Of a DNA stretch of 63,745 nucleotides, positions 14,977 to 34,177 are shown piece after piece (positions within the stretch are counted from its first letter, which is position 1; each line of letters begins with the position of its first letter). The DNA lies in contig SHYO01000001.1 of the NCBI GenBank assembly GCA_009692745.1, positions 1 through 63,745 on the forward strand, given 5' to 3'. The notes below the pieces were generated by a model. The model was not told the origin of the DNA. It saw nothing but the letters and a program-made list of their open reading frames with translations, and searched no databases. This DNA comes from Chloroflexota bacterium (GTDB taxonomy: Bacteria; Chloroflexota; Anaerolineae; Epilineales; SHYO01). Made by a program: the position numbers and the translations under genes.

Positions 14977-15003
14977 CCGTATCTTTTCCCTACAACTTTC
15001 GTT
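14977..15003 (+). promoter_or_regulatory. CCGTATC-N16-CGTT motif copy C1 (ECF-type promoter candidate)
   Basis: ggCCGTATCtttt...ttCGTT with an exact 16-nt spacer, 199 nt upstream of the giant gene A ATG. Confidence 0.5.
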
Positions 15004-15102
15004 CTAGCACGTCGAAATACTATAACTATGTCCCTATATTCTTCTGTCCTGGCTATTGTGGATGCGAAGATGAGATTGGCATGAGAAATTCACCTCAGCA
15101 GA

Positions 15103-15129
15103 CCGTATCTAGTAGCGTTTTCTCGCGTT
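15103..15129 (+). promoter_or_regulatory. CCGTATC-N16-CGTT motif copy C2 (ECF-type promoter candidate)
   Basis: gaCCGTATCtagt...cgCGTT with an exact 16-nt spacer, 73 nt upstream of the giant gene A ATG. Confidence 0.5.
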
Positions 15130-15201
15130 CTGGCAGCACGAAGCACCTCCCGTCCTGGCGTGGTGCTGAGTCCCATTTGGCATTAAAGGAGGCCACCGTT
15201 C

Positions 15202-18200
15202 ATGATCCCCTCATCCGGTAAATCGAAGTTGTTTTCTCAAGTCGCTGATTCCGTATCTGCCACCCGGAAGATTTTGGGCCAGTGGAAGCCGCATCTACCA
15301 TCGCGTCGCACGATGTCAAAGATGCTATTTTTGGCTTCCCTGGCTCTGCTTGTTTTAGTGGGGCAGGCGCAGCCCGCTACCCAGGTTCATGCTCAAACAA
15401 ATTTATTCCAAATAATCTGGAGTGCTGACCCTCCGGTTTTTGCAACGGCCGGAAAACCGATCCTGGTCCGGGTGCAGGTCCAGGGTTTCCAAGCTAGCAA
15501 GCATTTTGATACTGCCAAGATTTTTACCGGCAGCGGTGGTCTCCCCTCTGCGTTGGGCACAGGGCCAGGCTTCTCTATTCCAGTCGGTAATTGTACGCCG
15601 GACCTGCCAAACAATGCAGAGACCTGTTCGAATTTCACCATTGAGACAAACGATCAATTTGGTTTCTATATTCTCTATAATATCCCTCCCGGTTGGGTGG
15701 GAGGCACGGATTTATCCCGAGATCTGAACACCTTTTTCCAGGCCCGCGGCGACTTAGCGATAGATTCGAACTATGCCGTGAACGTGGGCGCTTCGGCCGA
15801 CGTGGCCATCACCAAAATCGGCGCCCAACAGGCCCGCGCCGGGCAGCCCTTTACCTACAAGCTCGTGGTAGATAACTATGGCCCGTCGAATGCCCGTAAT
15901 GTGACCATCGAAGATGATATTCTCTCTTCACAGAATGTGACCTTGAATTCGGCGCCGGGTTGTACTGTGACCGGGGCTGGCGCGCAGCGCCATCTAAGCT
16001 GCGCACTAGGCACCATGACACCGAACGAGCGCATTACTATCGATGTGAGCGTGACCTCCAATGTTGATGCCATCATCAACAACACGGCTCAGGTTACGAC
16101 TACTGATCCCGATCCGGTGACCTTCAACAACAGCGCCCAGACGTTCACCGTCGTTTCCGCCGTGGCCGATTTGGCCGTGACCAAGACCAAGCAGAGCCCG
16201 GCCGGCAACCTCACCGCCGGCGGCAATGTCACCTATCGGCTTAGGGTCGACAACAATGGCCCTTCCTCCGCCGAAGGCGTGATCCTGGTAGATACGCTGC
16301 CGGCTTTTGCGCGGAACGTGACCTTCGGCGCCATCAGCGGCGGCGCCGGGTCTTGTATACCGGGCAACACGCCGATTACCCCGGCTACCTGTAACCTGGG
16401 TACCATCGCCAACGCTGGCTTCCGCCAGGTTGACGTCACCTTCCAGGTCGATCCCAGTATTCCCATCGACCCGGCCACCGGCGCTACCCTGTCCAACCAG
16501 GCGCAGGTCTTGAGTAATACTTTCGATCCCGATAACAGCAATAATTCTGACCAAGTCACGACCACCGTGGTGGGCTCTTCCGCCCTGTCGATGACCAAGA
16601 CCAGCGTGCCGGCAACGGTACACGCCGGTGACCTGTTCCACTACGATATCGTGATCAGAAACGCTGGGCCGTCCACGGCTTTTGACACCATCTTCCACGA
16701 TACCATACCCACGACGACCTTCCTGGTACTGAACGTCAGCCTGGCTTCGCCGCCTTTCTCGCCCTTCCCCAGTTGTACCATCGGGGTGGGCAACGGCCAG
16801 ATCGATTGTACCATCGGCGCCCTGGCGCCGGGCGCCACGGTCACCGGGACGATTAACCTGGTGGCCGCGGCCAGCGCCATCCCCGGTACGTACACCAACA
16901 ATGTCTTAGTCACCAGCCGCTCCGGTAGTGCGGTAGCTACTGCCCAAACCACGATCGACCGGCAAGCCGACCTGGAGATTACCAAGTTAGACGTACCCGA
17001 CCCGGCTACCGCCGGCTCGCGCATCGCCTATGCCATCACCGTCATCAACCGCGGTCCCTCCGATGCTCCGAGTGTCACCGTGGCGGATACGTTGCCGGCC
17101 GGCTTCACCTTTGCCGGCAGCACCGAGAACTGTACGGCCGGCGCCCCGGGCTTCAACTGTAACCTGGGCACCATCCCGGCCAACGGCTCGAGGAATTTCC
17201 TGGTCAACGTAGATATCGCCAGCAGTGTGGCGCCGGGTAATTTTACGAATTCCGTCACCACTGCCAGCAGTGCGCCCGAACCGAACCCTGATCCGCACTC
17301 CAACACCGCCACCCAGATCACCACAGTCCTGGGCAGCGCCGAACTGACCATGACCAAGTTGGCCAATCCGGTTGCGACCATCGTGGCGGGCACGAACTTC
17401 ACCTATACCTTGGTGGTCGATAACTTCGGTCCTTCCGACGCGCGCACCGTTACCGTAACTGATCTTCTGCCGCCGGAAGTGACTTTTGTCTCGGCCACAT
17501 CGACCTCCACGCCCGCCTTTATTTGTCCCCCCCCGGCTGGCAATAACCTGACCTGCACCCTCGCCACCCTGGCGGCTAACGGGCGGGCTACCATCGAGGT
17601 CGTGGTCAAGGCGAACCAGAACATTGCCTCGCCTTTCAACCCGATCCGCAACTGCGCCGAAGTGAACGCGGTGACCCCCGATCCCAACCGGGCAAATAAC
17701 CAGGCCTGCGCCTTCGTCACGCCGGCCAGCTTTGCCGACCTGGCGGTCTTCAAGAGCCATACGCCCGAGCCTGTGACGGCCGGCCAGAATATCACCTATA
17801 CCATCCGCGTCACCAATACCGGCCCCAGCGACGCCCACGGCGTGCTGGTGCAGGATATCCTGCCCGCCGGTGTGACCATCGATACCAAGCCGATTTTCTG
17901 CACCACCGAAGTAGTCTGTAACCTGGGCGATATTGCCGTGGGCCAGACGAAGGTCTTAACCATCTCGGTAGCGGCCAGCCAGTTCCTGCCCGCCGGCACC
18001 AAGCTACATAACGTGGCGCGGACCTTCAGCTCCAGCTTTGACCCGAACAACACCAACGATATCTATAACGATGTCGCCAACGTGATTACTACCGCTAACC
18101 TGTCGGCGCGGAAGATCGCCATCCAGCGTAATCAGTTTACTGAGACGATCTGCGGCACGCCCACGGGTTGTACAGTCAATGACATATTTGTCGCTGGCCA

Positions 18201-21200
18201 GACTGTCGAATACCAGATTCTGTTGCGCAACAACGGCCCCTCAGTGGCCCACAACGTCCTGATCAGCGATGTCTTACCGATCAGCACCACGATCGTCAGC
18301 GCCGCTGTGAAGAACCGTTCCGGCTTCTGCCAATTCCAGGCCGGTGGCAACCAGGTGCATTGTAACCTGGGCGATGTGGCGGCGAACCCGGCGCCGGACC
18401 AGGAGATTATCGTCAGCATCAATGTCTTGATCTCGCCTGCCGCGCCCCAGGGTTCCGTCTTGACCAACCGGGCCCGCATCAGCAGCGATACCGGCAATGG
18501 GCCCATCATCCTGCCCGCGCCGCCGAACTTCGATGGCAAATCTGGCGCCGACAGTGTCCTGGCGCCTGATAGCGTGACCTTCTCCTTCCTGGATTTGATC
18601 CTGTCGCTCTTTGTCCAGGCGCAGGCTGACCTGCTCATCATCAAGGCCGATACCGGCGTGCCTGCGACGGCCGGATCCTTCACTACCTACCAATTGTTGG
18701 TGATCAACGCCGGGCCGTCCGATGCCCAGAACGTGGTTATCAACGATACGCTGCCGGTCGGCTTTACCTATGTAGACAGCCCCAGCGACTGTACCGCTAC
18801 CGCGGGAGGCTTCACCTGTAACCTGGGCACCCTTGCCGCGGGCGGCAGCCAGGTTGTGGCTGTAACCGTGAAACTGGATCCCAACGTGGCTGCTGGCAAT
18901 CACACCAACACCGCCACAGTCACCAGCAGCACCAACGATCCCAATGCGGCCAATAATACCGCTACCCAGGTCACCGCGGTGCTAGAAGTGGCCGATCTCT
19001 TCGTGCGCAAGTTTGGCCGCCCGGACCAGATCGTGGTAGCCGGCACGCTGATGACCTACACCATCTATGTGGATAACGTGGGCCCGTCGGACGCCCGCAA
19101 TACCGTAGTCACCGATACGCTTGATCCCGATGTGACCTTCGTCAGCTCCACCCCTGCGCCGAGTACGGTCGGACCCACCGATCCGCTCAACGGGGAAATA
19201 AATTACATCTACAACCTGGGCACTGTGGCTTTCAATACGCGGGCGCAGATCCAGGTGGTCGTGCGGGTGAACCGCAGCGTGGGACCGCCTTTTGACCCGA
19301 TAACCAACCGGGTTGAAGTGCGCAGCACGGCGCAAGATCCCAACCTGGCCAACAACTTTACCGAACGCGTCAACGCCGTGACGGCCCAATCGGATCTATC
19401 GATCAGCAAGACGGCCGAGGGCCAGAACGTACAGAATTCTGGTACCGCACCTGCGCCCATCGCCTTGCAGGCCAACAGCGTAACCGCCGGTACCAACATC
19501 ACCTACACCATCCGCATCACCAACAGCGGTCCGACCGACGCTTACAACGTCTTCATCCAGGACTTTGTACCTCCTGGCGTAGACACGCGCGCGGTCTCCA
19601 TCACGCGCGGTGATGGCCTGCCGGGTACCTGCCAATTTGGCGGCCTGGTGGATGGCAGTGTGCGCTGCAATATCGATACGCTACCTTTCACCACAACCGC
19701 CGGCCTGAACACCGCTACGATGGTGATTAACGGCTTTGTTGCCAGCTCGGTACCCGAAGGCTTCCTGCTCAATAACAACGCCCAGGTATTCAGCGATAAC
19801 CTGGATCCCAACAATTCCAACAACCTTGCCCAGAATCAGACCGTGGTCAACGCCCGCGCTGACCTGGTGATTACCAAGACGGACGATCCTGACCCGGTAA
19901 TTGCCGGCAACATCCTGAAGTACACTATTACCGTGACCAACTCCGGCCCGTCCGATGCGCTCAACGTCGTCGTGACCGACACCCTGCCGGTGGACGGCAA
20001 CGGTGTGGCCCAGGTAGTCTTCGGCAATAGCTCCTTGAAGAATACCTTCGGTGGGGAGCTATGCTCCGCCGATTTCATCCATCCCGAGCGCGTTACCTGT
20101 AACGTCGGTACGCTGACGGCCGGCCAGGTGGTTACTTTCGACATCCTGGTGCTGGTCAAGCCGAATGTGGTGCTGGATGGCGAGACTTTCCACAACATTA
20201 CCAACACGGCTGCCGTCAAGAGTAGCACCATTGATCCGGTGTCCAGCAACAATACTACCACCCAGACCACGAGGGTCGAGGCCCGCGCCGAGCTGACCAT
20301 CCAGAAGGTGGATTCGCCAGATCCAAACGCGGCCGGGTTGCGCGAGACCTACTTGATTAACTTCTCCAACACCGGGCCGTCCACCGCGCGCACCGTAGTG
20401 GTGACCGATACTTTGCCGTTGGGTGTCTTCTACTCCTATTGTTCTCCTGTCGATCCGAACGATATCGTTTCCTGCTCGGTAATTAGCGGCAACGGTGTAA
20501 CGGTACCCCAGGTGGTTCAACTGAACTCCATCAAGCGGGCCAACGTAACGCTCTACCAGAAACCGCCCGCTGGAGAGGAAGACGACCTGGATCCGGGTGA
20601 GAGCTACTCCTTCTTCCTGATTGCCGATGTTTCCCCCGGCTACGTGCTCGACGGTCGTGGCATCACCGATCCCGGTAATTTGTGCCAGGCTGCCTCTGTG
20701 GCTGCCGGCGGCTATCCGCACATCGCCGATAACCGGGCTACTATCACTTCGGAGACGCCGGATCCGCAACCGCTGAATAACTACGATGACGAGTGTACCC
20801 AGATCATCGGTTCCGCCGACCTGTCCATTACCAAGACCGACAGCACCGGGGACTTCCCGCATGGTGACCCATTGGCCCCTGGTGGCACGATTACGTATAC
20901 CATTGTGGTCATCAATAACGGCCCTTCCGATGCTGCCGATGTGCGGGTGCAAGACCAACTGCCCCAGGGTCTGATCCTGAATCCTGCCCTGGTCGTCGTT
21001 ACCGTCAGCAGCCCGCTGATTGATGCACCCACTGCACCCATCATCACCAAGCGTGACGACGGATTGATCACGGTGCTCCTGGGTCGCGTCAACACGTCTT
21101 CGACGATTACCCGTACGAATCCGACTACCGGGGGTGGCGCCACCGGTCCGGGTGGTCCAATTACGATCACCATCGTTACCCGCGTAGCGCTAACCACGCC

Positions 21201-23523
21201 GGCCGGCATACTTACCAACGTGGCTTTGGTAGATACGGTAAAGGATCTGCGTTTCCCCAACCGTACCCGGCCGACGGCTGATCCGAATCTGAACAACAAC
21301 ATTGCCGTGGAAACCACTACCATCCAGATACCGTCCATCAAGGTGAATAAGACCGTGTCGTTCAACGGTGTCTGCCCCGGCACGGACAATCCCGCCGTGT
21401 CTACGCCGAACCAGCCGGTGACTTTCTGCTACGAGATCACCAACACCGGCACCACCTTCTTGGATAATATCTTGGTGATTGACTCCTACAAGACGCGGCA
21501 AGGGACCATCAACTTCTTTGTGGACCTGATCACCTTTGGCGCCGATCCGGGATTGCCGGTTGCTCCTGGTGAGGTCGTCCGCCGCCAGGTGACCCTGCCG
21601 TCACCGTACTTCAGCGACTGCGGCACCAATGTCAACACGGTGTTTGTGATAGCTGATCCGGTGAACTCTGGTCGCACTCGCCTGGTCGATCTGCCTCAAG
21701 TTTTCAATGCTGATGTAGCTACGATCAACGTGCCTTGCGAAGGGGTAGATTACCGGTTGCAGGTACCCATCCTGGACAACAGCACCTGCCAGAGCTGGGT
21801 CACCGTGCAGAACTATGGTAACAAACCCACCAAGGCCATGATGGTCATCTGGGGCCAGCCGGGCTATTGTACACCGCAGTCCACCGGTCCTTTGAAGGTG
21901 GAATGCACCGGCTTGCTGCTCCCCGGTAGTTCCTGGGTCTTTGCCCCCAGCCTGCTGCCGGCCGGGTCCCATAGTGCGGTGGTTTACTCGCTGAACGCTA
22001 CTGACCTGATTCCTTCGGTGAACGGCACCCTGCTGCCCTTCTCCGACGTAGCCTGCCGCGCGCTGTACCAGTATGTGGTCTTCAATGACGATCAATGGTT
22101 TGAGTTTGACTACTCGTACCGCCACCAGGGCATCTACCGTGGTCCTATCGGCAACGCCGGGCAGCAATTGCTGCTGGACTTCGGCGCGCACCAGGGGCAG
22201 CCGATTGCGGTTGAAGTTAACCGCACCTGCCCTGGCGATGTGACCCCGGGCTTCAAGGCCAGCGCCGCCTACACCGGCATCTCGTCGGATATGGAAGGCG
22301 CGCCCGACTTGACCTTCGGTGGTTTCGCCTACTACGTGCCCTTGATCTACACCCAGGGGCAGGGCGGCTACAATACCACCCTCTGGATCCAGAACTCCGG
22401 CGACCAATGCACCTCCGTCGAGATCTACTTCCAGAAGCAGGACAACTGTTTGCACCCGACGATCGGCGAGATCCTGAGCCTGTCGCCGGGGGAGACCATC
22501 GGCTTCGACCCGGCTACGGTGTTGCCGGCGAACCCGCCCTGGCAGGGCAGCGCCTGGATTCGGGCTTCCAAGCCCTTGGGTATCGTGGTAGATGTCCGTG
22601 GTAAGAATATGTTTGGCTCGTATGTGGGTGTGCCGGCCCAGTTGCAGTCGACCTTCAATTCCACGCCGGAGTTTAGCTTCGGTACCGCGGTGAACTACGC
22701 CCCCTTGATCTACCGCGAGTTCAACGGCTGGCAGACGGGCATCCAGGTACAGAACCTGAGCTCGATCACCAACGCCAAGGTCAAGGTCTACTTCGTCGAC
22801 CACACCGGTGGCATCATTACCACAGTCGTCGACTGGATCTGCCCACGCGGCTCGCAGACGTTCTTCTTGCCGGTGATCAACGGGTTGCCGGGGAACTATG
22901 TCGGTGCGGCGCGCATTGAGTCTCAGAACTGGTGGACTCCTGGCGATCCGAGTGTAAAAGCTCCTAATGTGTTGTCAATAGTGAACGTGATTAAGTATGC
23001 CGACCAGAACAGCACCACCACCCCGCTGGAGATGGCGATGTACAACGCCCTACCGGAGTGGAAGAGCTTCGACTGGCAGGTTGGTACTCCTCCCGGTCTG
23101 TTGGGGATGGGCTTGTTAGGTGTGCCGTTGGTGACGAAGGGCGGGCTGAACCAGGTCTACAGCGAGCTGGCGATCCAGAACCTGAACCCGAACCCTGGCT
23201 TCACCGACTTTGCGATCTTCTTCTACGACCAGAACGGGTTACTCGACACGGTCTGCGAGAAGCTGAACGAGAAGCAGGTGGAGTACATCGACCTGTCCTC
23301 GTGGGGCTTCGTGCCCAACGGCTTCAACGGTTCGGTGGTGATCTCGGCCACGCGCACCACGCAGCCTGGTGGCTTCGGCCTGGCGGGGGTGGCGGTCGAG
23401 CGGGTAGGGCGGAGTTTGACCCAACCGCAGCTCCAGGGGGATGAGACCAAGGCGTATGAGATGTTCCCGATCTTCTTCCCCTTCACCTTCCCGGTGACGC
23501 CGACGTGTCCGGGACAACCGTAA
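15202..23523 (+). CDS. Giant secreted DUF11-repeat surface protein A (2773 aa) with shared four-repeat C-terminal region
   Basis: AAAGGAGG 8 nt before the ATG. Hydrophobic signal segment MLFLASLALLVLVG after a 40-aa basic leader. About 13 DUF11/TIGR01451 repeats (ADLxxTK...NxGPSxA...DxLP) and a C-terminal 730 aa homologous to giant B. Confidence 0.9.
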   Translation: MIPSSGKSKLFSQVADSVSATRKILGQWKPHLPSRRTMSKMLFLASLALLVLVGQAQPATQVHAQTNLFQIIWSADPPVFATAGKPILVRVQVQGFQASKHFDTAKIFTGSGGLPSALGTGPGFSIPVGNCTPDLPNNAETCSNFTIETNDQFGFYILYNIPPGWVGGTDLSRDLNTFFQARGDLAIDSNYAVNVGASADVAITKIGAQQARAGQPFTYKLVVDNYGPSNARNVTIEDDILSSQNVTLNSAPGCTVTGAGAQRHLSCALGTMTPNERITIDVSVTSNVDAIINNTAQVTTTDPDPVTFNNSAQTFTVVSAVADLAVTKTKQSPAGNLTAGGNVTYRLRVDNNGPSSAEGVILVDTLPAFARNVTFGAISGGAGSCIPGNTPITPATCNLGTIANAGFRQVDVTFQVDPSIPIDPATGATLSNQAQVLSNTFDPDNSNNSDQVTTTVVGSSALSMTKTSVPATVHAGDLFHYDIVIRNAGPSTAFDTIFHDTIPTTTFLVLNVSLASPPFSPFPSCTIGVGNGQIDCTIGALAPGATVTGTINLVAAASAIPGTYTNNVLVTSRSGSAVATAQTTIDRQADLEITKLDVPDPATAGSRIAYAITVINRGPSDAPSVTVADTLPAGFTFAGSTENCTAGAPGFNCNLGTIPANGSRNFLVNVDIASSVAPGNFTNSVTTASSAPEPNPDPHSNTATQITTVLGSAELTMTKLANPVATIVAGTNFTYTLVVDNFGPSDARTVTVTDLLPPEVTFVSATSTSTPAFICPPPAGNNLTCTLATLAANGRATIEVVVKANQNIASPFNPIRNCAEVNAVTPDPNRANNQACAFVTPASFADLAVFKSHTPEPVTAGQNITYTIRVTNTGPSDAHGVLVQDILPAGVTIDTKPIFCTTEVVCNLGDIAVGQTKVLTISVAASQFLPAGTKLHNVARTFSSSFDPNNTNDIYNDVANVITTANLSARKIAIQRNQFTETICGTPTGCTVNDIFVAGQTVEYQILLRNNGPSVAHNVLISDVLPISTTIVSAAVKNRSGFCQFQAGGNQVHCNLGDVAANPAPDQEIIVSINVLISPAAPQGSVLTNRARISSDTGNGPIILPAPPNFDGKSGADSVLAPDSVTFSFLDLILSLFVQAQADLLIIKADTGVPATAGSFTTYQLLVINAGPSDAQNVVINDTLPVGFTYVDSPSDCTATAGGFTCNLGTLAAGGSQVVAVTVKLDPNVAAGNHTNTATVTSSTNDPNAANNTATQVTAVLEVADLFVRKFGRPDQIVVAGTLMTYTIYVDNVGPSDARNTVVTDTLDPDVTFVSSTPAPSTVGPTDPLNGEINYIYNLGTVAFNTRAQIQVVVRVNRSVGPPFDPITNRVEVRSTAQDPNLANNFTERVNAVTAQSDLSISKTAEGQNVQNSGTAPAPIALQANSVTAGTNITYTIRITNSGPTDAYNVFIQDFVPPGVDTRAVSITRGDGLPGTCQFGGLVDGSVRCNIDTLPFTTTAGLNTATMVINGFVASSVPEGFLLNNNAQVFSDNLDPNNSNNLAQNQTVVNARADLVITKTDDPDPVIAGNILKYTITVTNSGPSDALNVVVTDTLPVDGNGVAQVVFGNSSLKNTFGGELCSADFIHPERVTCNVGTLTAGQVVTFDILVLVKPNVVLDGETFHNITNTAAVKSSTIDPVSSNNTTTQTTRVEARAELTIQKVDSPDPNAAGLRETYLINFSNTGPSTARTVVVTDTLPLGVFYSYCSPVDPNDIVSCSVISGNGVTVPQVVQLNSIKRANVTLYQKPPAGEEDDLDPGESYSFFLIADVSPGYVLDGRGITDPGNLCQAASVAAGGYPHIADNRATITSETPDPQPLNNYDDECTQIIGSADLSITKTDSTGDFPHGDPLAPGGTITYTIVVINNGPSDAADVRVQDQLPQGLILNPALVVVTVSSPLIDAPTAPIITKRDDGLITVLLGRVNTSSTITRTNPTTGGGATGPGGPITITIVTRVALTTPAGILTNVALVDTVKDLRFPNRTRPTADPNLNNNIAVETTTIQIPSIKVNKTVSFNGVCPGTDNPAVSTPNQPVTFCYEITNTGTTFLDNILVIDSYKTRQGTINFFVDLITFGADPGLPVAPGEVVRRQVTLPSPYFSDCGTNVNTVFVIADPVNSGRTRLVDLPQVFNADVATINVPCEGVDYRLQVPILDNSTCQSWVTVQNYGNKPTKAMMVIWGQPGYCTPQSTGPLKVECTGLLLPGSSWVFAPSLLPAGSHSAVVYSLNATDLIPSVNGTLLPFSDVACRALYQYVVFNDDQWFEFDYSYRHQGIYRGPIGNAGQQLLLDFGAHQGQPIAVEVNRTCPGDVTPGFKASAAYTGISSDMEGAPDLTFGGFAYYVPLIYTQGQGGYNTTLWIQNSGDQCTSVEIYFQKQDNCLHPTIGEILSLSPGETIGFDPATVLPANPPWQGSAWIRASKPLGIVVDVRGKNMFGSYVGVPAQLQSTFNSTPEFSFGTAVNYAPLIYREFNGWQTGIQVQNLSSITNAKVKVYFVDHTGGIITTVVDWICPRGSQTFFLPVINGLPGNYVGAARIESQNWWTPGDPSVKAPNVLSIVNVIKYADQNSTTTPLEMAMYNALPEWKSFDWQVGTPPGLLGMGLLGVPLVTKGGLNQVYSELAIQNLNPNPGFTDFAIFFYDQNGLLDTVCEKLNEKQVEYIDLSSWGFVPNGFNGSVVISATRTTQPGGFGLAGVAVERVGRSLTQPQLQGDETKAYEMFPIFFPFTFPVTPTCPGQP
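22222..23523 (+). repeat. 1.3-kb dispersed direct repeat, copy 1 (3' end of giant gene A)
   Basis: Collinear without indels with 42810-44111. Sampled 60-nt blocks show roughly 90-98 percent identity, against about 70 percent immediately upstream. Confidence 0.85.
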
Positions 23524-23624
23524 GGGATTAGGACTGAGTTAAGATTTTACCGGTGACGGAGTTACGTAGGATTAATTCCGTCACCGGAAGGTGATTTAGA
23601 CCAGAATTTGCAGTAATAGTAAAT

Positions 23625-23670
23625 AAAAAGTCCCGGCACTGTAGTAGTTTCGCTACAGCCGGGACTTTTT
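23625..23670. terminator. Bidirectional intrinsic terminator
   Basis: aaaaa-gtcccggc..ctgtag-loop-ctacag-ccgggac-ttttt. A-run and T-run flank a 13-bp interrupted stem, 100 nt after the giant A stop. Confidence 0.75.
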
Positions 23671-23805
23671 ACACGCCCAGAACGTCTGGTTGGACACGGT
23701 TTGCCAGAAGCTAAACCAGAAGCAGAAGGATTCCATCAAATTGTCCAGTATAATCACACGAGATTCGCGCGCCCGGGTGTTTTCATAGGGGGTTACCAGA
23801 CGCAT

Positions 23806-25798: not shown

Positions 25799-25845
25799 TG
25801 GTTTTCCCTCTCTAGATATATCATACAAGGCAGATGGCCGGATAG

Positions 25846-25873
25846 GTAGGGGCGTACGGCCGTACGCCCCTAC
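25846..25873. promoter_or_regulatory. Perfect 28-bp palindrome upstream of the tail-fibre-like gene
   Basis: gtaggggcgtacgg|ccgtacgcccctac, 48-75 nt upstream of ATG 25798. Confidence 0.5.
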
Positions 25874-25982
25874 GGATGGTACATCGGTCATGACAGACTA
25901 CCATTGAGTGCTGGTGCAGGGGCCAGGTGTCCTCGCTTATCAATTTCTTAGCTGAGATTATCTCTCACTTATGCCTATCAGC

Positions 25983-26024
25983 AAAATACAAGGCCCGTGG
26001 TGTAGTGAGCACCATGGGCCTTGT
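25983..26024 (-). terminator. Intrinsic terminator of the paralog operon
   Basis: 15-bp stem (one mismatch) acaaggcccgtggtg / caccatgggccttgt, followed on the minus strand by TATTTTGCT, 100 nt after stop 26123. Confidence 0.55.
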
Positions 26025-26122
26025 GGAATCAAGCGTAATAGTTCAAGCAGACCGGAAAAGTGTGCGGTTGGTCCCCAGCCTTGCTGGGCCCGCACCTATT
26101 AAAACAGAATTTTCATGTTCGA

Positions 26123-27550
26123 TTACTGGGTGGGCCTGATTACCTCGCGGTACGCCTTGCGGAAACGGTCAAAGGCCAGCTTCCACTGCCCCTGGTTGTA
26201 GTGTTGTTGGGCGGCGGCGAATTCGGCTTCGGCGTTGTTCACCGGTTGGTTGGCCTGCAATTTCATCATATCGATGCTCGAGCGCACCGTGTCGCGCACC
26301 ACTTCCAGCAGGCCGCAACCTGGCGCCAGGGCGTCGCTGTTCGGGTTGCTATAGCCGGTGATGCAGACGGAACTGGGCAGCGCGAACAGCCCGACCGGGG
26401 AATCTGTCGGCGAGGCCAGGTTGGCTTCGATGTGGCCGCGCAGGTTCAGGTTGCGGAAGTTGAACAGGTTCGTATCGATATTGTTCGCCCGCACGGTGAG
26501 CAGGTCACCCAGGTCCATCAGGTCGGCGTGGATGATGCCGGTATTTTTGTAGGTAGCCTCCAGCTCGGCGTAGTTGATTTTCTTGTCACACCCCTGGTAA
26601 ATGCCTATGACTGCGTCTGCCGCCGCCGATACGGCTTTAGCGATGGTGTGGACCAAGCAGGCCGGCGCATTTGTGCCGCCGCCGACGATGGCGCAGGGCA
26701 CATACAGCAGAAGGCACAGGGAATCGGTCACATCGGTGGTGGTCTGGGCGATATTCTTCGCGATCAGCCCGGCCAATCCGACTCCGGCGGGGGTGCGCTC
26801 GTGGCCAAAGCGGCAGGTGACGCCCAGGCCGCTGTAATCCGGATTGGGGATCAGATCCACATCTTTGAGGTCCCCGGCGGCGTTGTTCTTCTCTTCCGCA
26901 TCCTTCAAGCTATCGTGGAGGATGGGCGCGGGGTTCGGTGTGGCGGTAGGTACCACATTGAAGTAATCCGGCTCTACCTTCGACTTGCCCGCTCGCGTAG
27001 CGAGACGCAACGCCTCTGCGGCCTGCAGCATATCTGGCCCGGGGGCCACCGTCTCCAGTTGGCCCGCTTTTTTAGCCTGCTCCTGGTAGGTCTTCAACAG
27101 GTGTACATTGTTTTTGAAGGTGGTGAAATTCGGGAAGGCGTGGTATAGGGCGTACACTTCCTCGGGGCTCAGGGAGAGGATGTTTTTTTGAGTTTGCAGA
27201 TACATATCATGGGAGAAACCGCCCCGCAGCAGGTTGCTGGTGGTCAAATCGTTGAGCAGTTCATCCAGGGTCTTGACCACAGCCAGAATCTCTTTGCGGT
27301 TGTTCTCCACGGCCTTGAGATCGGCTGCGGTGGGAGGCGCTATGCCCGGGGGATACACCATCCCGGGTGTGGGAGTGACCGCAGGGTCTTTAGCAGGGCC
27401 CACACCTGGCGTGGGGGTGCCGGTGACGGCAGCGGCGGCTAGAGCGCCCGGTGCGTTGCCGGTCGATGGGGCCCCCAGGCCCATAACTATAAAGGGCGCC
27501 ACCAGGAGCATCAAAGCTACCATAAAGACGGAGTTAAATTTGTTTAGCAT
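26123..27550 (-). CDS. Secreted Cys-rich protein of unknown family, paralog P1
   Basis: AGGAGG 8-9 nt before ATG 27550, signal peptide MLNKFNSVFMVALMLLVAPFIV and a Pro-rich linker. Shares the blocks PDYFxVVPT, ANNIDTNxFNFRNLxLR..IEANLAS, GCGLLEVVRDTV and GQWKLAxxRFRKAYRE with P2. Confidence 0.75.
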   Translation of the reverse strand: MLNKFNSVFMVALMLLVAPFIVMGLGAPSTGNAPGALAAAAVTGTPTPGVGPAKDPAVTPTPGMVYPPGIAPPTAADLKAVENNRKEILAVVKTLDELLNDLTTSNLLRGGFSHDMYLQTQKNILSLSPEEVYALYHAFPNFTTFKNNVHLLKTYQEQAKKAGQLETVAPGPDMLQAAEALRLATRAGKSKVEPDYFNVVPTATPNPAPILHDSLKDAEEKNNAAGDLKDVDLIPNPDYSGLGVTCRFGHERTPAGVGLAGLIAKNIAQTTTDVTDSLCLLLYVPCAIVGGGTNAPACLVHTIAKAVSAAADAVIGIYQGCDKKINYAELEATYKNTGIIHADLMDLGDLLTVRANNIDTNLFNFRNLNLRGHIEANLASPTDSPVGLFALPSSVCITGYSNPNSDALAPGCGLLEVVRDTVRSSIDMMKLQANQPVNNAEAEFAAAQQHYNQGQWKLAFDRFRKAYREVIRPTQ

Positions 27551-27631
27551 TCCGATTGTCCTCCTACGAATGCTCCATGTCGAGTGCTGGCGACGCTGAT
27601 CGTGAACCAAAACCCCTGGGTCCCCCGGTGG

Positions 27632-28966
27632 TTATTGAGCACGAACCGCCTCGCGGTAGGCTTTGCGGAACCGGGCGTAAGCCAGCTTCCACTGCCCTTT
27701 ATTGTACAGGTCCAACGCGGCCTGGTATTCGGTGCGCGCGTTGAATACATTCTGGTTGGCGCTTAGGCTCATCATATCAATGGTGCTTTGCACGGTGTCT
27801 CTGACCACCTCCAGCAGGCCGCAGCCGGCGGAAACGCCCTGATCGGTGGGGCTATAACCGGCGCCGTAGAGACAAATTGTGCCGGGCAAGCTGTAGAGCG
27901 CCATCGGATCGTCTTCATCGGAAGCCAGGTTCGCTTCGATACTAAGCCGCAGGTCCAGGTTGCGGAAGTTGAAAATGTTGGTGTCGATATTGTTGGCGCG
28001 GGAGATAAAGGCGCTGTTATAGTCGATCATGTCCGAATGGATAATCTTGGTATTGTCCAGGTTGGCCCTGATCCATGCTTCCGCGGTGAGATCCTGGCAA
28101 AGGATGAACCCGGCGGCCGTGGCCTTGAGTGCGTCGGCCGCGCCGTCCACAACGGCTTTGATGGGGCAAGTGATTATGCTGACATCGATGGTCCCGGGGA
28201 CCGGGCAGACAATGGCTTTGAGCTTGCATCCCAGTCCCAATCCGATAGAGACCAGAGAGAGGACGCCGGCCGCGATGCCAATGTCGTCGGGGATGCTCCA
28301 GTTATACAGGCGGGTGGGGCAGCCAATGCTGGTGGCATAGTCCGGCAGTTGTTCTTTGGACCCGCCGTTGATCTTGATGTCTCCGGCCTGGATGTTTTGC
28401 GCCTTGGCGTTCTGGTGGTCAATACCGGCGGTGGGCGGCACCGGCGTGGGCACGATGGTGAAATAGTCCGGCGATGGGCCGCCGCTGCGCGCCTGGGGCG
28501 AATCCTGCTGGGATTTTTCCGCCTGCGCCAGAATCTCCTGCAAGGCGGCGTTGCCATCGCGGAAAGCCTGGAACGCGGTGTGGTCCAGGTGGTGCACCAT
28601 GTTCGTCAGTTCCTCGGTGGTCATGTATTTAACGGTATACCGGTAATCCTCGGCGGCCGAAGGCTGGCCGCCCGCGGCGGTTATGGCCGCCGGCCCCAGC
28701 AGCTCTTGCACCGCAATGGCATTGTCGATCAGGTCCAGCATAAGGTGGCGCATTTCCTCCGGCGTTTGGGGATCGCCAGGAGCATTGGGCGCGAAGAGAG
28801 ATTGCGGATAGAGGCCGGGATTTATGGCCTGGGCTACTGATTGGCTGAATCCCAGAGTGGGGGCCAGCGTCCCGTTCCCATTGGGTGCGGCATAGTTTGC
28901 CGGCCCATTGGCGGCTATTGGTATTAGCAGCAATAGAGCCGAGAGGATGATTCCCAGCTTGCCCAT
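27632..28966 (-). CDS. Secreted Cys-rich protein of unknown family, paralog P2
   Basis: AGGAGG before ATG 28966, signal peptide MGKLGIILSALLLLIPIAA, 8 Cys, and the same conserved C-terminal blocks as P1. An 81-nt gap to P1 suggests an operon. Confidence 0.75.
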   Translation of the reverse strand: MGKLGIILSALLLLIPIAANGPANYAAPNGNGTLAPTLGFSQSVAQAINPGLYPQSLFAPNAPGDPQTPEEMRHLMLDLIDNAIAVQELLGPAAITAAGGQPSAAEDYRYTVKYMTTEELTNMVHHLDHTAFQAFRDGNAALQEILAQAEKSQQDSPQARSGGPSPDYFTIVPTPVPPTAGIDHQNAKAQNIQAGDIKINGGSKEQLPDYATSIGCPTRLYNWSIPDDIGIAAGVLSLVSIGLGLGCKLKAIVCPVPGTIDVSIITCPIKAVVDGAADALKATAAGFILCQDLTAEAWIRANLDNTKIIHSDMIDYNSAFISRANNIDTNIFNFRNLDLRLSIEANLASDEDDPMALYSLPGTICLYGAGYSPTDQGVSAGCGLLEVVRDTVQSTIDMMSLSANQNVFNARTEYQAALDLYNKGQWKLAYARFRKAYREAVRAQ

Positions 28967-29067
28967 ACTTTTTCCTCCTGAATGTAGTAAACCGGACTTA
29001 CCAGTGAGATATGCCCAACCCTCAGTTGGGCGTTAAGCCTGCAAGTGCCTGTGTCCGGGAACTCACC

Positions 29068-29083
29068 GCTGAGTACCCTCAGC
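29068..29083. promoter_or_regulatory. Single copy of the 16-bp palindrome GCTGAGTACCCTCAGC
   Basis: Exact match to the tandem-array unit core. It lies in the presumed leader of the P2-P1 operon. Confidence 0.6.
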
Positions 29084-29238
29084 ATGAGACTAACGTATTA
29101 GACCTTATCGGGATTAAGCAAGAGTGTGCCTGACGCATGTCGGCCCGGCCGCACAGTATTTCTATTTCCGATAATGTCTATTATACTCATATCTGAGAAG
29201 TAAATGAGAGATTTGATGAAATACCTTGGTTATGCATT

Positions 29239-29265
29239 AACGTGTAGATGCCCATAAAGATACGG
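29239..29265 (-). promoter_or_regulatory. CCGTATC-N16-CGTT motif copy D (ECF-type promoter candidate, minus strand)
   Basis: Minus strand reads ggCCGTATCtttatgggcatctacaCGTT, 273 nt upstream of P2 ATG 28966. Confidence 0.5.
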
Positions 29266-29313
29266 CCTGGCGCCGCATCAGGCAGAATTGATGCTTAATA
29301 ATCCGTTTTTTGC

Positions 29314-29340
29314 CCGTATCTTTAACCTGACCTTCACGTT
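29314..29340 (+). promoter_or_regulatory. CCGTATC-N16-CGTT motif copy A (ECF-type promoter candidate)
   Basis: gcCCGTATCtttaacctgaccttcaCGTT, 352 nt upstream of the Ig-repeat gene ATG. The flanking roughly 80 nt is also similar to the copy at 34141-34220. Confidence 0.5.
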
Positions 29341-29382
29341 CTAACCAAAAGGTTAAAATTCGATGAGAGTAGTTGGCGTGAT

Positions 29383-29423
29383 GCTGGCTGAGGGTACTCA
29401 GCTTGAGAGTACCCTCAGCCAGC
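29383..29423. repeat. 17-bp perfect inverted repeat with 7-nt spacer, built from the same palindrome motif
   Basis: gctggctgagggtactc-agcttga-gagtaccctcagccagc. Contains GCTGAGGGTACTCAGC, the reverse orientation of the unit. Confidence 0.85.
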
Positions 29424-29515
29424 ATACCATACCCGTGTGTGATGTCAAATCCATTCCCCTCAGCGTGATAGCTGGCCGGTCTACTACGCTGATATGTATT
29501 GCTGCGCCGTGCCCA

Positions 29516-29615
29516 CCAAGCTGAGTACCCTCAGCCCAAGCTGAGTACCCTCAGCCCAAGCTGAGTACCCTCAGCCCAAGCTGAGTACCCTCAGCCCAAG
29601 CTGAGTACCCTCAGC
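29516..29615. repeat. Perfect 5 x 20-bp tandem repeat, each unit carrying the palindrome GCTGAG-TACC-CTCAGC
   Basis: ccaagctgagtaccctcagc repeated five times without a mismatch. The array ends 76 nt upstream of ATG 29692. Confidence 0.95.
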
Positions 29616-29691
29616 CCGCAACGGCGGATCAGGAGTTGATGGACAAAGAGGCCAGGTTGGGCCAGGTAAGATTCTTCCCGAGGAGGTTCCT

Positions 29692-32600
29692 ATGATGTTC
29701 CTGCAGCGATCTGTAAAGCATGGTAAGCAACCCAGGCATAAGCTCACGGGTTTGGTTCCGGCTGGAGCCGCGGCCCTGGCCCGGCTCGCCGTCCTGGCCC
29801 TCTTGCTGACTCTCGGCCTGGCGCCGGTGAGCGCCGCGCCCGCTGGCCCCGATTTTCCTACCGGCCCGCTGGCAAATATTGCTACAACAACGACATTTTC
29901 TACACCATCGCCCGCCAGCCCTGCAACTAATTGTCAGCCTGTTTCTTTTCTCGTATCCGTTACCCGCAATGATACAACTGGAGCGGTGATTTCGGGGACC
30001 GTCTCCTTTACGGATAATTCCACCGCCATCAGCGGTTGTCAAAATTTGGCGCTAAACGGATCTGGCCAGGCGACCTGTAACGTTAGCGCATTGACAATCA
30101 GTGGATCACCGCATACGATTGCTGCCAATTATTCGGGCGCTCCTGCCGGCCCGGATACGTTGCAAGCATCCTCCAATAGCATAAATTATACAGTGAATAA
30201 GGCCACCACCACGATCACGGTGGTGGGCGCGCCCAACGCCTCGACCTACACGCAGAAGGTCACCTTCACCGCCACGGTCACCTCGGCCTGCGGCAATGTC
30301 ACGGGGGTGGTGTTCTTCAACGACAACGGCACGACTATCGGCACGGGGGCGGTCAATCCCGCCACCGGCATCGCCACGTTGGATACTACCGAGCTGGATG
30401 CGGGCACCCATAAGATCACGGTGGTTTACGGCGGGGATGAGGACCACTCGGCCAGTGACAACTACGCCTCGCCCTATTCTCAGGTGGTGAATAAGGCCAC
30501 CACGACGGTGGCCGTGACCAGCTCGGCCAACCCGTCGGTGTGGGGGCAGCCGGTAACCTTCCAGGCCACGGTCAGCACCGGGGCCAGCGCCGTGCCTTCG
30601 GGGGCGGTGATCTTCAAGGCTGACGGGATTTACATCGGCCAGGCCAACCTGAACGGTTCGGCCCAGGCCAGCTTCACCACGGCGGCCCTGGAGGTGGCGA
30701 ACCATCCGATCACCGCGGAATACGAGGGGGATCTGAACTTCTCCGGCAACACCGGCAATCTTTCCGGTGGCCAGACGGTGAATAAGGCCGACACCACCAC
30801 CACCGTCACGAGCGACAAGACGCCCACGGTGTATGGCGAGCAGATCACCTTCTTCATCACGATCTCGCCGGTACCGCCGGGGGCGGGAGCGCCGGGGGGA
30901 AATGTGTTGATCAAGGTGGACGGCAACGACCTGGTGACGGTGCCGGTGGGATTAGTTGGTACCGGCAAGGCGCAATTCCAGACCTCGCCCTTGGGGCCGA
31001 TCCCGGCCAGCGCCTCCGACCACAATATCACCGCATTCTACCAGGGGGATAGCCACTTCAACACCAGCGATAACAGCGCTACGCCTTACAAACAGCATGT
31101 GAACAAGGCGAACACGGCGACGCAGGTCATCAACGGCCTGACCACCTCGACGGTGGGGCAGCCGGTGAGCATCCTGGCGCAGGTGACCCCGGTAGCGCCG
31201 GGGTTTGGTACGCCCTCGGGTATGGTGGAGTTCCGCGACAACGGTAACCTGGTGGCCACAGTCCCCTTGGTCAATGGGCAGGTGAGCCAGGACATCACCT
31301 TCAGCACACCGGGGACGCATGTGGTCAACGCGAGCTACCTGGGGGACGCTAACTTCAATACCAGCAACGCCAACCAGGCGCCAGACCAGACGGTGACCAA
31401 GGCGGACACCACTGCGACGCTGACCAGCAGCGGGAACCCGTCGTTTGTAGGACAATTGATTACCTTCACGGTACAGGTGACTATCTCCGGCTCCTCGGCG
31501 GTGGCGTTTGTGCCGGGGGGGACGGTGGCATTCAACGATAATGGGATTCCGATAACGGGGTGCGGCAGCGTGCCATTGGTGGGAGGCACGGCGCAGTGCG
31601 CCACCTCGACGCTGACGGCCGGAGCGCACCCGGTGAAAGTAGTATACGGCGGGGATGCCAACTTCAACGGGACGACCTCAAACCAGGTAACACAGAACGT
31701 GAACAAGGGGAACACCACCACGACGGTGAGCAGTGTGCCGCCGGGCTCGGCAGTGCTGGGAGCGCCGGTGACCTTCACAGCAGTGGTGGCGCCCAGCAGC
31801 GGGACCGGTGTCCCCAGTGGGAACGTGAAATTCCTGGATGGGGGATCACCCATCGCCGGGTGTACCGCCCAGCCGTTGGCGGCCGGGCTGGCCACCTGTG
31901 TCATCTCGACGCTGGGGGCGGGGAACCACGCGATCACGGCGCAGTACCTGGGGGATACAAGCTACAATACCAGCGTCTCCAATCCGCCCTACCAGTTTAG
32001 CATCACGGCGGCGGGCAGCGCCACGGCGCTGGTAGGGAGCGCGAATCCGACCACCTATGGCCAGACAGTCTACTTCACGGCCACGGTAACGACGGGCAGC
32101 GGCACCCCCACCGGGCTGGTGACGTTCAAGGATGGGGCTGCCACTGTGGGCAGCGGTATCCTTGACGGTACCGGCAATGCCTATTTCTCCACCAACGCTC
32201 TGACGGTCGGCTTACATCCGATTTCGGCGGTCTACGGGGGAGACAACAACTTCGCCGGCAGCACCTCGAATACCATCAACCAACAGGTGAACCAGGCGAG
32301 CACCACCACTACGATCGCCAACTCGCCCAGCACGTCGGTCTTCGGCCAGGCGGTGCTCTTGACCGCGACGGTGACGATCAACCCGCCGGGGCTGGGTACG
32401 CCTACGGGACCGGTGACATTTACCGTAGGGGCGACTGTACTGGGGGTGGTAAACCTGAACGCTTTCGGCAAAGCTTTCCTGACGACGAGCACGATCCCGG
32501 TGGGCTTGAACCAGACGGTGACGGCTAGCTTCGGGGGGACTGCTAACCTGGCGGCGAGTAACGGCACGACCCTGCAGACGGTGAACGCGGCCAGCACCAC

Positions 32601-34008
32601 CACCACGGTGGTGGCAAATCCGAACCCTTCCCTGCCGGGGCTGGTGGTGACGTACACAGCCACGGTAGCGCCGGTGGCGCCGGGCGGGGGTACGCCGGTA
32701 GGGACGGTGAACTTCACGGAAGGCGGCAGTCTCTCCGGTTGCGGCGCCGTGCCGCTGGTGGCGGGTGTGGCGACGTGCAGCACCACATACGGAGCGGCCG
32801 GTTCGCACACGATCACGGCGACGTACACCCCTGGCAACGGCAACCACAATGGCAGCAACGGTCAGGTAATTGAGGACGTGAGCGACACCCCGGCGGACCT
32901 GTCGGTGAGCGTGACGGATGCGCCCGATCCGGTATTGGCGGGGCAGAATGTGACCTACACCATCCAGGTGGTGAATACGGGACCTGGGCAAAATGTGACC
33001 CTGGTGAATACGCTGCCGGCGGGGGGCACGTTTGTGTCGATCAGCGCGGGAGCATGGAGCTGTACCACCCCGGCAGTGGGCAGCGGCGGCGTGGTGCAGT
33101 GTACCCGGTCGCCTTTGGGCACGAACGCCAGCGAGAGCATCGTGGTGGTAGTGAATGTGCCCCTGTCGACGCCGGCCGGGTCGATCTTCACGGACCAGGT
33201 GCAGGTGAGCGGCAACCGGCCGGATACGGACCCGAGCAACAACACGGCCCTGGCCGAGACGACGGTGTACCGCTCGCCGCGCGGAGACTGTAACGCGGAC
33301 GGGGCGGTGAACCGCGGGGATATCTTCTCGATCGTGGCGAAGATCTTCGACACAAGCGTTCTGACGCCGGTGCCCAGCCCGTCGGCCTGCGATTCGAACC
33401 AGGACCGGCTGCTGGATGCGGGGGACCTGCCCTGCACGGCTTTGATCATGTTTAACGGGCCGGTAGCCTGCAGTGCAGCGAACCAGACGCGCGTACCCGA
33501 TGCGCTGTCGCTCTTCATGGGCACAGCCCTGGCGGGACCGGCTCTGAGTTTGCCGCAGCAGTTGACCCCGCATGGCAACGGGCAGGTGGCGGCGCCGGTG
33601 AGCTTCACCGGGAATGGGAAGCAGATCAGCGCGGTGGTGTTCGCGGTGGATTACGACGCGCAGCAGGTGAGCTTTGATGGCGCCGACCTGGACCACAACG
33701 GCATCCCGGATGCGATCAGCCTGAATGTGCCGGGAGATTTCATTGTCTCAGTGGAAACGGATCTGGCGCACCACCGGTTGAACATCTCGGTGGCGGACAT
33801 CTCCTCGCCATTGCGGGTATTGGCGGATGGGGCGCTGCTGACGATTGGGTTCCAGAGTCTCAACGCGAACCCCGCTGGAGCAGCCATCCCGGTGGCATTT
33901 AGCCAGCAGCCGCGGGCCTCCTTTGGGGACACGGCGGGTCACAGTGTGTTGGGCCAGGCGACCCCGGCCAGGATGCACCAGCTCTATCTACCTTTCGCCA
34001 GGCGATAA
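29692..34008 (+). CDS. Secreted Ig-like-repeat protein (1438 aa) with one DUF11 repeat, a dockerin-like module and a cohesin-like module
   Basis: GAGGAGG before the ATG and signal peptide LAVLALLLTLGLAPVSA. About ten repeats of roughly 100 aa of the type NKATTTxxV...VTFTATV...G.V.F.DNG...HxITAxYxGDxNF (bacterial Ig-like group 3). Then ADLSVSVTDAPDPVLAGQNVTYTIQVVNTGP. Confidence 0.85.
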   Translation: MMFLQRSVKHGKQPRHKLTGLVPAGAAALARLAVLALLLTLGLAPVSAAPAGPDFPTGPLANIATTTTFSTPSPASPATNCQPVSFLVSVTRNDTTGAVISGTVSFTDNSTAISGCQNLALNGSGQATCNVSALTISGSPHTIAANYSGAPAGPDTLQASSNSINYTVNKATTTITVVGAPNASTYTQKVTFTATVTSACGNVTGVVFFNDNGTTIGTGAVNPATGIATLDTTELDAGTHKITVVYGGDEDHSASDNYASPYSQVVNKATTTVAVTSSANPSVWGQPVTFQATVSTGASAVPSGAVIFKADGIYIGQANLNGSAQASFTTAALEVANHPITAEYEGDLNFSGNTGNLSGGQTVNKADTTTTVTSDKTPTVYGEQITFFITISPVPPGAGAPGGNVLIKVDGNDLVTVPVGLVGTGKAQFQTSPLGPIPASASDHNITAFYQGDSHFNTSDNSATPYKQHVNKANTATQVINGLTTSTVGQPVSILAQVTPVAPGFGTPSGMVEFRDNGNLVATVPLVNGQVSQDITFSTPGTHVVNASYLGDANFNTSNANQAPDQTVTKADTTATLTSSGNPSFVGQLITFTVQVTISGSSAVAFVPGGTVAFNDNGIPITGCGSVPLVGGTAQCATSTLTAGAHPVKVVYGGDANFNGTTSNQVTQNVNKGNTTTTVSSVPPGSAVLGAPVTFTAVVAPSSGTGVPSGNVKFLDGGSPIAGCTAQPLAAGLATCVISTLGAGNHAITAQYLGDTSYNTSVSNPPYQFSITAAGSATALVGSANPTTYGQTVYFTATVTTGSGTPTGLVTFKDGAATVGSGILDGTGNAYFSTNALTVGLHPISAVYGGDNNFAGSTSNTINQQVNQASTTTTIANSPSTSVFGQAVLLTATVTINPPGLGTPTGPVTFTVGATVLGVVNLNAFGKAFLTTSTIPVGLNQTVTASFGGTANLAASNGTTLQTVNAASTTTTVVANPNPSLPGLVVTYTATVAPVAPGGGTPVGTVNFTEGGSLSGCGAVPLVAGVATCSTTYGAAGSHTITATYTPGNGNHNGSNGQVIEDVSDTPADLSVSVTDAPDPVLAGQNVTYTIQVVNTGPGQNVTLVNTLPAGGTFVSISAGAWSCTTPAVGSGGVVQCTRSPLGTNASESIVVVVNVPLSTPAGSIFTDQVQVSGNRPDTDPSNNTALAETTVYRSPRGDCNADGAVNRGDIFSIVAKIFDTSVLTPVPSPSACDSNQDRLLDAGDLPCTALIMFNGPVACSAANQTRVPDALSLFMGTALAGPALSLPQQLTPHGNGQVAAPVSFTGNGKQISAVVFAVDYDAQQVSFDGADLDHNGIPDAISLNVPGDFIVSVETDLAHHRLNISVADISSPLRVLADGALLTIGFQSLNANPAGAAIPVAFSQQPRASFGDTAGHSVLGQATPARMHQLYLPFARR
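33283..33440 (+). other. Dockerin-like double Ca-binding loop module inside the Ig-repeat protein
   Basis: GDCNADGAVNRGDIFSIV ... CDSNQDRLLDAGDLPC. Two D-x-N/D-x-D-G/x...D loops about 35 aa apart. Confidence 0.5.
33541..33915 (+). other. Cohesin-like beta-sandwich module at the C-terminus of the Ig-repeat protein
   Basis: VAAPVSFTGNGKQISAVVFAVDYDAQQVSFDG...LLTIGFQSL resembles the cohesin pattern (v.v.v......i.g..f.l.YD...l). Confidence 0.45.
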
Positions 34009-34019
34009 GGTTGACATCG

Positions 34020-34050
34020 AGGCCCCGGCCTCTCCATAGAGGCGGGGCCT
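34020..34050 (+). terminator. Terminator-like hairpin after the Ig-repeat gene
   Basis: aggccccggcctct-ccat-agaggcggggcct, a 13-bp stem with one bulge and no clear U-tract. Confidence 0.4.
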
Positions 34051-34150
34051 TGGTCAAGATCTGTACCATACATTGAATATATCGGAAAACTTTGAGATGT
34101 AGTTTGCGCTATTATCAGGCCATTTTGAGGATGTAGATCTCGATTTTTAG

Positions 34151-34177
34151 CCGTATCTTTAACCAGACCTTCACGTT
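34151..34177 (+). promoter_or_regulatory. CCGTATC-N16-CGTT motif copy B (ECF-type promoter candidate)
   Basis: agCCGTATCtttaaccagaccttcaCGTT, 320 nt upstream of giant gene B ATG 34497. Confidence 0.5.

Follow-up and report, generated by a model that had tools for sequence, protein, structure and literature searches.

A CCGTATC-N16-CGTT motif marks probable promoters of a BldN-related ECF sigma factor in a giant surface-protein cluster of Chloroflexota

We analysed the entire 63,745-bp contig SHYO01000001.1 (hereafter the window) from a metagenome-assembled genome (MAG) of a Chloroflexota bacterium, in which a two-part motif, CCGTATC-N16-CGTT, precedes genes for giant surface and secreted proteins. 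By Pfam annotation the genes that carry the motif occupy an island of about 29 kb with four predicted transcription units, flanked by housekeeping genes such as mutS, mutL, PBP1 and alpha-2-macroglobulin. At the left end of the island lies the gene for giant A (15202-23523, + strand), a protein of fibrillar-adhesin type with 2773 amino acids (aa) and 13 DUF11/CLIPPER repeats, and at the right end that of its paralog giant B (34497-44111, +; 3204 aa), which carries 14 DUF11/CLIPPER repeats and a CHRD domain. CLIPPER is the new name of DUF11, an isopeptide-bonded domain found in the stalks of fibrillar adhesins (PMC12617251). Between the two giants are the gene for a Big_3_5 protein (29692-34008, +; 1438 aa, with ten Big_3_5 repeats and a DUF11 domain) and, on the opposite strand, a putative operon (24230-28966) encoding P1 (27632-28966, -; locus tag EXR62_00085), P2 (26123-27610, -) and a Peptidase_S74-domain protein (24230-25891, -). 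The paralogs P1 and P2 are secreted and carry no Pfam domain; their family, for which neither Pfam nor NCBIfam holds a model, has invariant cysteines and a C-terminal WKLAYARFRKAYREAV motif.

Each of the four units is preceded by the motif, and giant A by a tandem pair, the distal copy c1 at 14977-15003 (+) and the proximal copy c2 at 15103-15129 (+), whose CGTT elements lie 198 and 72 nucleotides (nt) from its start codon. Copy c3 (29239-29265, -), 272 nt from the start of P1, serves the P1-P2-Peptidase_S74 unit and stands back to back with c4 (29314-29340, +), which serves the Big_3_5 (Ig-repeat) gene from a distance of 351 nt; c5 (34151-34177, +) serves giant B and lies 319 nt from its start. 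Copies c1, c3, c4 and c5 are exact matches, and c2, the weakest of the five, is exact in its core. Good ribosome-binding sites are present at the start codons of the genes preceded by the motif.

The first-pass annotation, made by eye, had listed these five copies and no others, and the pattern search agreed: the window holds exactly five matches, where 0.02 were expected (the mean over 100 dinucleotide-preserving shuffles) and none of the 100 shuffles reached five. The spacer is indeed exactly 16 nt in all five copies, as had been claimed, and also in every related site described below; all copies are, again as claimed, intergenic and sense to the next gene (5/5, with an intergenic fraction of 0.105; P ~4e-7), and the CCGTATC at 2897 was correctly set aside, there being no -10 element at that place. 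The further claim that four copies share an extended -35 side, G[C/G]CCGTATCTTTA, was slightly overstated, as the strict form is found only in c3 and c4; CCGTATCTTTA is present in three copies (c3, c4 and c5), and it is the form CCGTATCTTT that occurs in four. On the -10 side CGTT is invariant across the window copies, with the extension CGTTCTA here versus CGTTATA in the Anaerolineae consensus.

When up to two mismatches were allowed, 11 matches were found in the window versus 14 expected, so that degenerate copies are not in excess. Since near-matches stay at the chance level, the signal is all-or-none and only the perfect copies stand out, a pattern that fits extracytoplasmic function (ECF) sigmas in their need for near-consensus promoters (PMC7776599). 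A position weight matrix (PWM) made from non-window sites only gave its top score in the window to c5 (29.2 bits), followed by c4 (24.4 bits), c3 (22.9 bits) and c1 (22.1 bits), with a shuffle maximum of 15.8 bits, and its scan of the window returned no further site. The surroundings of c4 and c5 are alike from about -45 to +45, beyond the motif itself; c1, c2 and c3 have only the motif in common with them.

The same motif recurs in distant versions of the cluster. There are 64 further P1 homologs, none of them more than about 40% identical, and in the P1-homolog loci a Big_3_5 gene followed by a giant CLIPPER gene runs divergently from P1, P2 and Peptidase_S74 (syntenic clusters at the loci labelled L002, L004, L005, L007, L010, L016, L017 and L019), with cluster proteins only about 35% identical. 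The order P1, P2, Peptidase_S74 on one strand is kept in all related loci, and the Big_3_5 orthologs measure 1440-1550 aa in all syntenic ones. In a scan of reference genomes the cluster was found almost exclusively in uncultured Anaerolineae and Anaerolineales MAGs; a few homologs bear the label Methylomirabilales or Deltaproteobacteria, perhaps as a result of mis-binning.

The divergent intergenic region carries the exact 11-base motif in seven loci (L002, L004, L005, L007, L010, L012 and L016) and a CATT variant in L018. The back-to-back arrangement of c3 and c4, with 46-48 nt between the -35 ends, is kept in the window, L004, L007, L010 and L016. The position orthologous to c4 carries the motif in L002, L004, L007, L010, L016, L047 and L132, L002 having tandem copies upstream of its Big_3_5 gene, and in L084, L103 and L074 the motif is followed by giant B homologs. 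On the P1 side of L002 and in L019, TTGACA-N17-TATAAT/TACAAT stands at the motif's usual place, and such a replacement by a canonical sigma-70-type promoter is expected if the motif is the promoter itself and not an accessory operator. We also considered the motif as a housekeeping promoter and rejected it, because only 2/6 positions of TTGACA are present in the hexamer that lies at -35 distance from the TATA-like bases; the clear TTGACA-N17-TATAAT promoters elsewhere in these organisms argue against this reading as well.

A metagenome scan with the pattern GGCCGTATCT-N15-CGTTNTA returned at least 120 stretches with 123 sites, 44 of which (among the matches listed) lie outside any open reading frame (ORF) of at least 100 aa. 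After de-duplication, 49 probable sites agree at bases that the pattern left unspecified, with CA before GG (CA-GGCCGTATCT), a T-tract in the spacer before the -10, and CGTTATA, the extended -10 in relatives reading CGTTATA(C). Common to these 49 sites is also TAGAG, 8-12 nt downstream of the -10, over 40% of the scanned sites having this consensus in common. The string conserved at this distance in the Anaerolineae relatives is another one than that of the window, where the c4 and c5 leaders are alike for about 45 nt past CGTT (29341-29390 and 34178-34227; TTAAAAnTnGATnAGAGnnGTTGG); the presence of such strings after CGTT suggests a conserved initial transcribed sequence.

Downstream of the scanned motifs are Big_3_5, giant CLIPPER and P1 homologs, together with genes for Flg_new_2 proteins, for an S8 subtilase that carries CLIPPER and dockerin domains, for a CARDB protein and for NHL/LDL-receptor propellers. 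In nine loci (L033, L039, L054, L057, L071, L101, L119, L122 and L124) the downstream gene encodes a large BTAD-AAA_16-TPR (SARP/AfsR-like) regulator. Such genes belong to the commonest ones behind the motif, which suggests a cascade from sigma factor to regulator.

The scan also brought out a sigma factor. An ECF sigma ORF adjoins the motif, on the same strand, in 18 of the 120 loci listed: the motif lies directly upstream of the sigma gene in L029, L041, L042, L045, L077, L094 and L126, directly after the sigma stop codon and before a partner gene in L040, L044, L055, L056, L070, L081, L099, L117 and L118, and, in L087 and L049, 1.5-2.2 kb downstream of that gene, several loci carrying it both upstream of and after the sigma gene. 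The 18 sigma factors form one family (38-89% mutual identity; 177-215 aa) with Sigma70_r2 and Sigma70_r4_2 domains (plus Sigma70_ECF). The motif-linked sigma scores above the cut-off of TIGR02937 (sigma70-ECF). Its best NCBIfam match is TIGR02952, the BldN family, at 166-175 bits, which is below the curated cut-off of 206.45 and makes the motif-linked sigma a relative of BldN, not a member of its family; ShbA comes second (101-115 bits), and SigX and SigW are also among the top matches. The gene after the sigma gene is conserved in all loci and encodes a membrane protein with a FecR or DUF5667/DUF5666 domain, one member having a weak N-terminal anti-sigma match (E = 4e-4).

Since these sigma loci had been found through the motif, we built a sigma profile to pick family members without it. 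Searched against the protein database, the profile matched at least 6001 proteins at E <= 1e-30; the named ones among the matches listed were all Chloroflexota, Anaerolineae or Thermoflexia, and no EXR62 protein was among the best 120 of the at least 6001 matches. Seven members were picked by protein profile alone, for their long contigs or named sources (L141-L147). The sigma gene is followed by a FecR-domain gene in 7/7, immediately in five and with one short ORF in between in L144 and L147, and the motif lies downstream of the sigma gene on the same strand in 7/7, exact in L142-L147 and as a CCGTACC-N16-CGTT variant in L141. Extra copies stand before a TadE/CLIPPER_2 surface-protein gene (L144) and before DUF5666 genes (L143 and L146). 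Over 101,981 bp these seven loci contain 8 exact 11-base matches versus 0.05 expected. In the sigma-motif-FecR layout a TGTGnTATAGT element, extended -10-like, precedes the sigma gene (L055, L117, L141 and L142), suggesting basal housekeeping expression of the sigma factor and sigma-dependent induction of its presumed inhibitor.

We therefore consider it highly probable that the five sites in the window are promoters for an ECF (group 4) sigma factor of a large Chloroflexota family, with BldN and ShbA as its nearest curated relatives. An ECF-type promoter with a regulator acting in trans had been proposed from the geometry, and that proposal is now supported by the footprint, the sigma linkage, the 7/7 unbiased loci and the kinship with BldN and ShbA. 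In the mechanism that we propose, CCGTATC(T) would be the -35 element and CGTT(nTA) the -10 element, with the fixed 16-nt spacer between them, and transcription is predicted to start about 6-10 nt after CGTT, for which the TAGAG of the relatives is an indirect hint. The partner with the FecR or DUF5667/DUF5666 domain would be an anti-sigma factor and sensor; an envelope signal would relieve the inhibition by this FecR-type partner, and the freed sigma factor would direct RNA polymerase to the CCGTATC-N16-CGTT promoters. The same promoter would give positive feedback where it stands before the sigma gene, would feed back on the inhibitor where it stands before the partner gene, and would do both where it precedes the two genes. 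On this contig the sigma factor would act in trans, with the MAG presumably encoding a family member, and the units co-activated over about 29 kb would be giant A from its tandem promoters, P1-P2-Peptidase_S74, the Big_3_5 protein and giant B. It is likely that the cluster is switched on as one unit by an envelope-sensed signal.

Several observations weigh against this assignment. No sigma or anti-sigma gene was found on the contig by Pfam or by phmmer with RpoE, SigW, SigE and RpoD, in agreement with the first-pass annotation of the window, and the same searches found none in 20 P1-based loci. The sigma family is very large (at least 6001 proteins), so that there may be several paralogs per genome, any of which could be the responsible one. 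The sites of the metagenome scan were ascertained with a strict form of the motif, and c2, with its perfect core and poor flanks, scores only 7.7 bits. Finally, ECF promoters classically show AAC in their -35 and CGT in their -10, and while CGTT has the latter, CCGTATC has ATC instead of AAC in every copy; the AAC hallmark was later dropped as defining (PMC8103513).

In a variant of the proposal the sites are alternative-sigma promoters but the sigma factor of this genome is another ECF or a paralog outside the BldN-like, FecR-linked family. No sigma gene was found on the contig itself, the window's promoters deviate from the Anaerolineae consensus in the spacer and the -10 extension, and ECF families often hold paralogs with overlapping specificity (PMC7776599). 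We nevertheless regard this variant as unlikely, given that the 11 core bases are identical to those beside very divergent sigma genes of the family and that the target cluster is orthologous to Anaerolineae clusters with the same motif. Less probable again is that the motif is the operator of a transcription factor, for example a BTAD-AAA-TPR (SARP-like) protein, with transcription coming from an unrecognised promoter nearby. This would explain why BTAD-AAA_16-TPR genes often adjoin the motif (the nine loci above), and CGTAT and CGTTAT, spaced by about 23 bp, can be read as a loose direct repeat. What invariably accompanies the motif, however, is the ECF sigma/FecR pair and not a BTAD gene, which stands beside the motif in 0/7 of the unbiased sigma loci, and in some clusters a complete sigma-70-type promoter takes the motif's place. 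SARP sites are typically heptamer repeats with an 11-nt period, and no such repeats were seen here. The geometry, moreover, is the one known from ECF promoters that the nearest relatives of the sigma factor use (PMC2375139, PMC12019637).

The similarity of c4 and c5 over about 90 nt, beyond the motif, together with the paralogy of giant A and giant B and of P1 and P2, could also mean that the copies are relics of a local duplication of paralogs with their upstream regions, without common regulation. Yet c1, c2 and c3 resemble c4 and c5 in the motif only, the motif is conserved in distant genomes whose flanks have diverged, and it also lies upstream of unrelated genes (sigma, FecR, BTAD regulators, an S8 protease and beta-propellers). 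The conservation across genomes effectively refutes this explanation, to which we give almost no weight.

What results for the ECF promoter reading is a solid regulon prediction and not a new mechanism, the system being mechanistically an ordinary ECF system. Anaerolineae are abundant, mostly uncultured and filamentous, and their regulation is essentially unknown; they gain a concrete, testable regulon made up of an ECF sigma family, a probable envelope sensor, an 11-base promoter code and targets that are mostly giant surface or secreted proteins. The uncharacterised cluster (the CLIPPER giants, Big_3_5, P1/P2 and S74) receives its first label, as co-regulated and probably induced by an envelope signal, and the motif can be used for direct annotation of the regulon in metagenomes. 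The sigma/promoter pair, whose non-AAC -35 is one base away from the BldN/ShbA site, is also a candidate for use as an orthogonal part, and it lends itself naturally to tests of the ECF specificity code. More tentatively, and as a possibility that we would not yet favour, a BldN-related ECF sigma factor with a FecR-type sensor might be a Chloroflexota-wide master switch of the giant isopeptide-adhesin cluster in filamentous Anaerolineae, with BTAD-AAA-TPR regulators as a second tier. If so, it would be a deep parallel to, or share ancestry with, the way in which sigma-BldN governs the chaplin/rodlin sheath of filamentous actinomycetes, and the GTATC -35, one base away from GTAAC, would mark a sigma/promoter pair that is orthogonal by nature.

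The leaders behind the divergent pair c3/c4 hold a second repeated element, the 16-nt palindrome GCTGAGTACCCTCAGC, with seven exact copies (0.02 expected) that span 29068-29615 and occur only there: one at 29068-29083, one at 29387-29402, and five as 20-nt units in tandem at 29520-29615, a short way upstream of the Big_3_5 start. A near-copy lies at 54969-54984, and the giant A and giant B leaders have none. The c4 leader also contains a perfect 19-bp hairpin (about 29381-29426) and folds with z = -6.7, and Rfam gave 0 hits in the long leaders. The palindromes may form an operator array or regulatory hairpins in the leader RNA. Inside the c4 leader, and upstream of c3, a sigma-70-like TTGACA-N16-TATGCT (10/12) at 29421-29448 (-) could be a second, housekeeping promoter toward P1 or a chance match, as 7 sigma-70-like sites were found in this region versus 4.5 expected.

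Some neighbouring genes may also be mentioned. Directly upstream of c1, a single 278-aa ORF (14026-14862, +) joins a nucleotidyltransferase (Polbeta/NTP_transf_2) and a HepT-like RNase domain, and thus corresponds to an MNT-HepT toxin-antitoxin pair in one polypeptide. Grouped at the left end of the window (394-4200) are an HtrA-like protease (Trypsin_2-PDZ), a response regulator of the LuxR type and an M50 (site-2-type) protease, none of them with the motif upstream. Proteases of the HtrA-like and site-2-type classes process anti-sigma factors elsewhere, and bldM, a classical BldN target, is a LuxR-type regulator. A 690-aa AAA_16 protein (6400-8472) was considered as a homolog of the BTAD-AAA-TPR targets and rejected for want of significant similarity. 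At 48120-57560 a class A penicillin-binding protein (PBP; transglycosylase and transpeptidase, 933 aa) is directly followed by a 2205-aa bacterial alpha-2-macroglobulin (A2M) with Big_5 repeats, the known PBP1c-A2M pairing, which is not under the control of the motif.

In comparison with known systems, our literature search turned up no account of BldN-like ECFs in Chloroflexi or Anaerolineae, nor of such a regulon there, and the main texts of PMC7826278 (with its bioRxiv version) and PMC7776599, consulted for a numbered ECF group, mention neither 'Chloroflexi' nor GTATC; this sigma group may already be present in curated ECF resources. With the FecI/FecR systems the motif-linked system has the FecR domain of the partner in common. 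Its sigma factor is not FecI-like, however, as no FecI-named model is among its top 25 NCBIfam matches, and no TonB-dependent receptor gene was found in any of the 7 sigma neighbourhoods; FecI-type sigmas are typically not autoregulated (PMC8103513). EcfG of Alphaproteobacteria (GGAAC-N16-CGTT) has the same -10 and the same 16-nt spacer and is autoregulated as here (PMC8103513), but differs in its -35 (AAC versus ATC), in its NepR/PhyR partner switching, and in having an unrelated sigma clade and regulon.

The ECF40 factors ShbA and SigD come closer. The sigma-ShbA promoter is CGTAAC-N16-CGATGA and that of mycobacterial/corynebacterial SigD is GTAAC-N17-18-CGAT (PMC12019637), so that the -35 hexamer and the spacing are closely similar to those of the motif, with CGAT as the -10 there and CGTT here. 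ECF40 is reported to be exclusively actinobacterial and ShbA has no anti-sigma factor (PMC12019637), whereas the motif-linked family is chloroflexotal.

The closest match is to BldN. The sigma-BldN promoter, CGTAAC-N16-CGTTGA (PMC2375139), has the same CGTAxC hexamer, 16-nt spacer and CGTT as the motif, 9/10 of the first specified bases being identical, and it differs in the GTAAC of its -35 (GTATC here) and in its -10 extension (GA there, ATA/CTA here). The partner of BldN is the class III anti-sigma factor RsbN (PMC7406223) and here it is a FecR- or DUF5667-domain protein; typing by Pfam and NCBIfam, which included no search against RsbN, argues against an RsbN-type partner. BldN belongs to Actinobacteria and has small amyloid-forming chaplins as targets, whereas the system described here belongs to Chloroflexota and has giant CLIPPER/Ig adhesins. 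BldN is reported (by Bibb et al. in 2012) to control the chaplin and rodlin sheath proteins. The two systems would be alike in controlling secreted or surface structural proteins of filamentous bacteria, and the finding that related sigma factors go with related promoters gives independent support to the sigma assignment.

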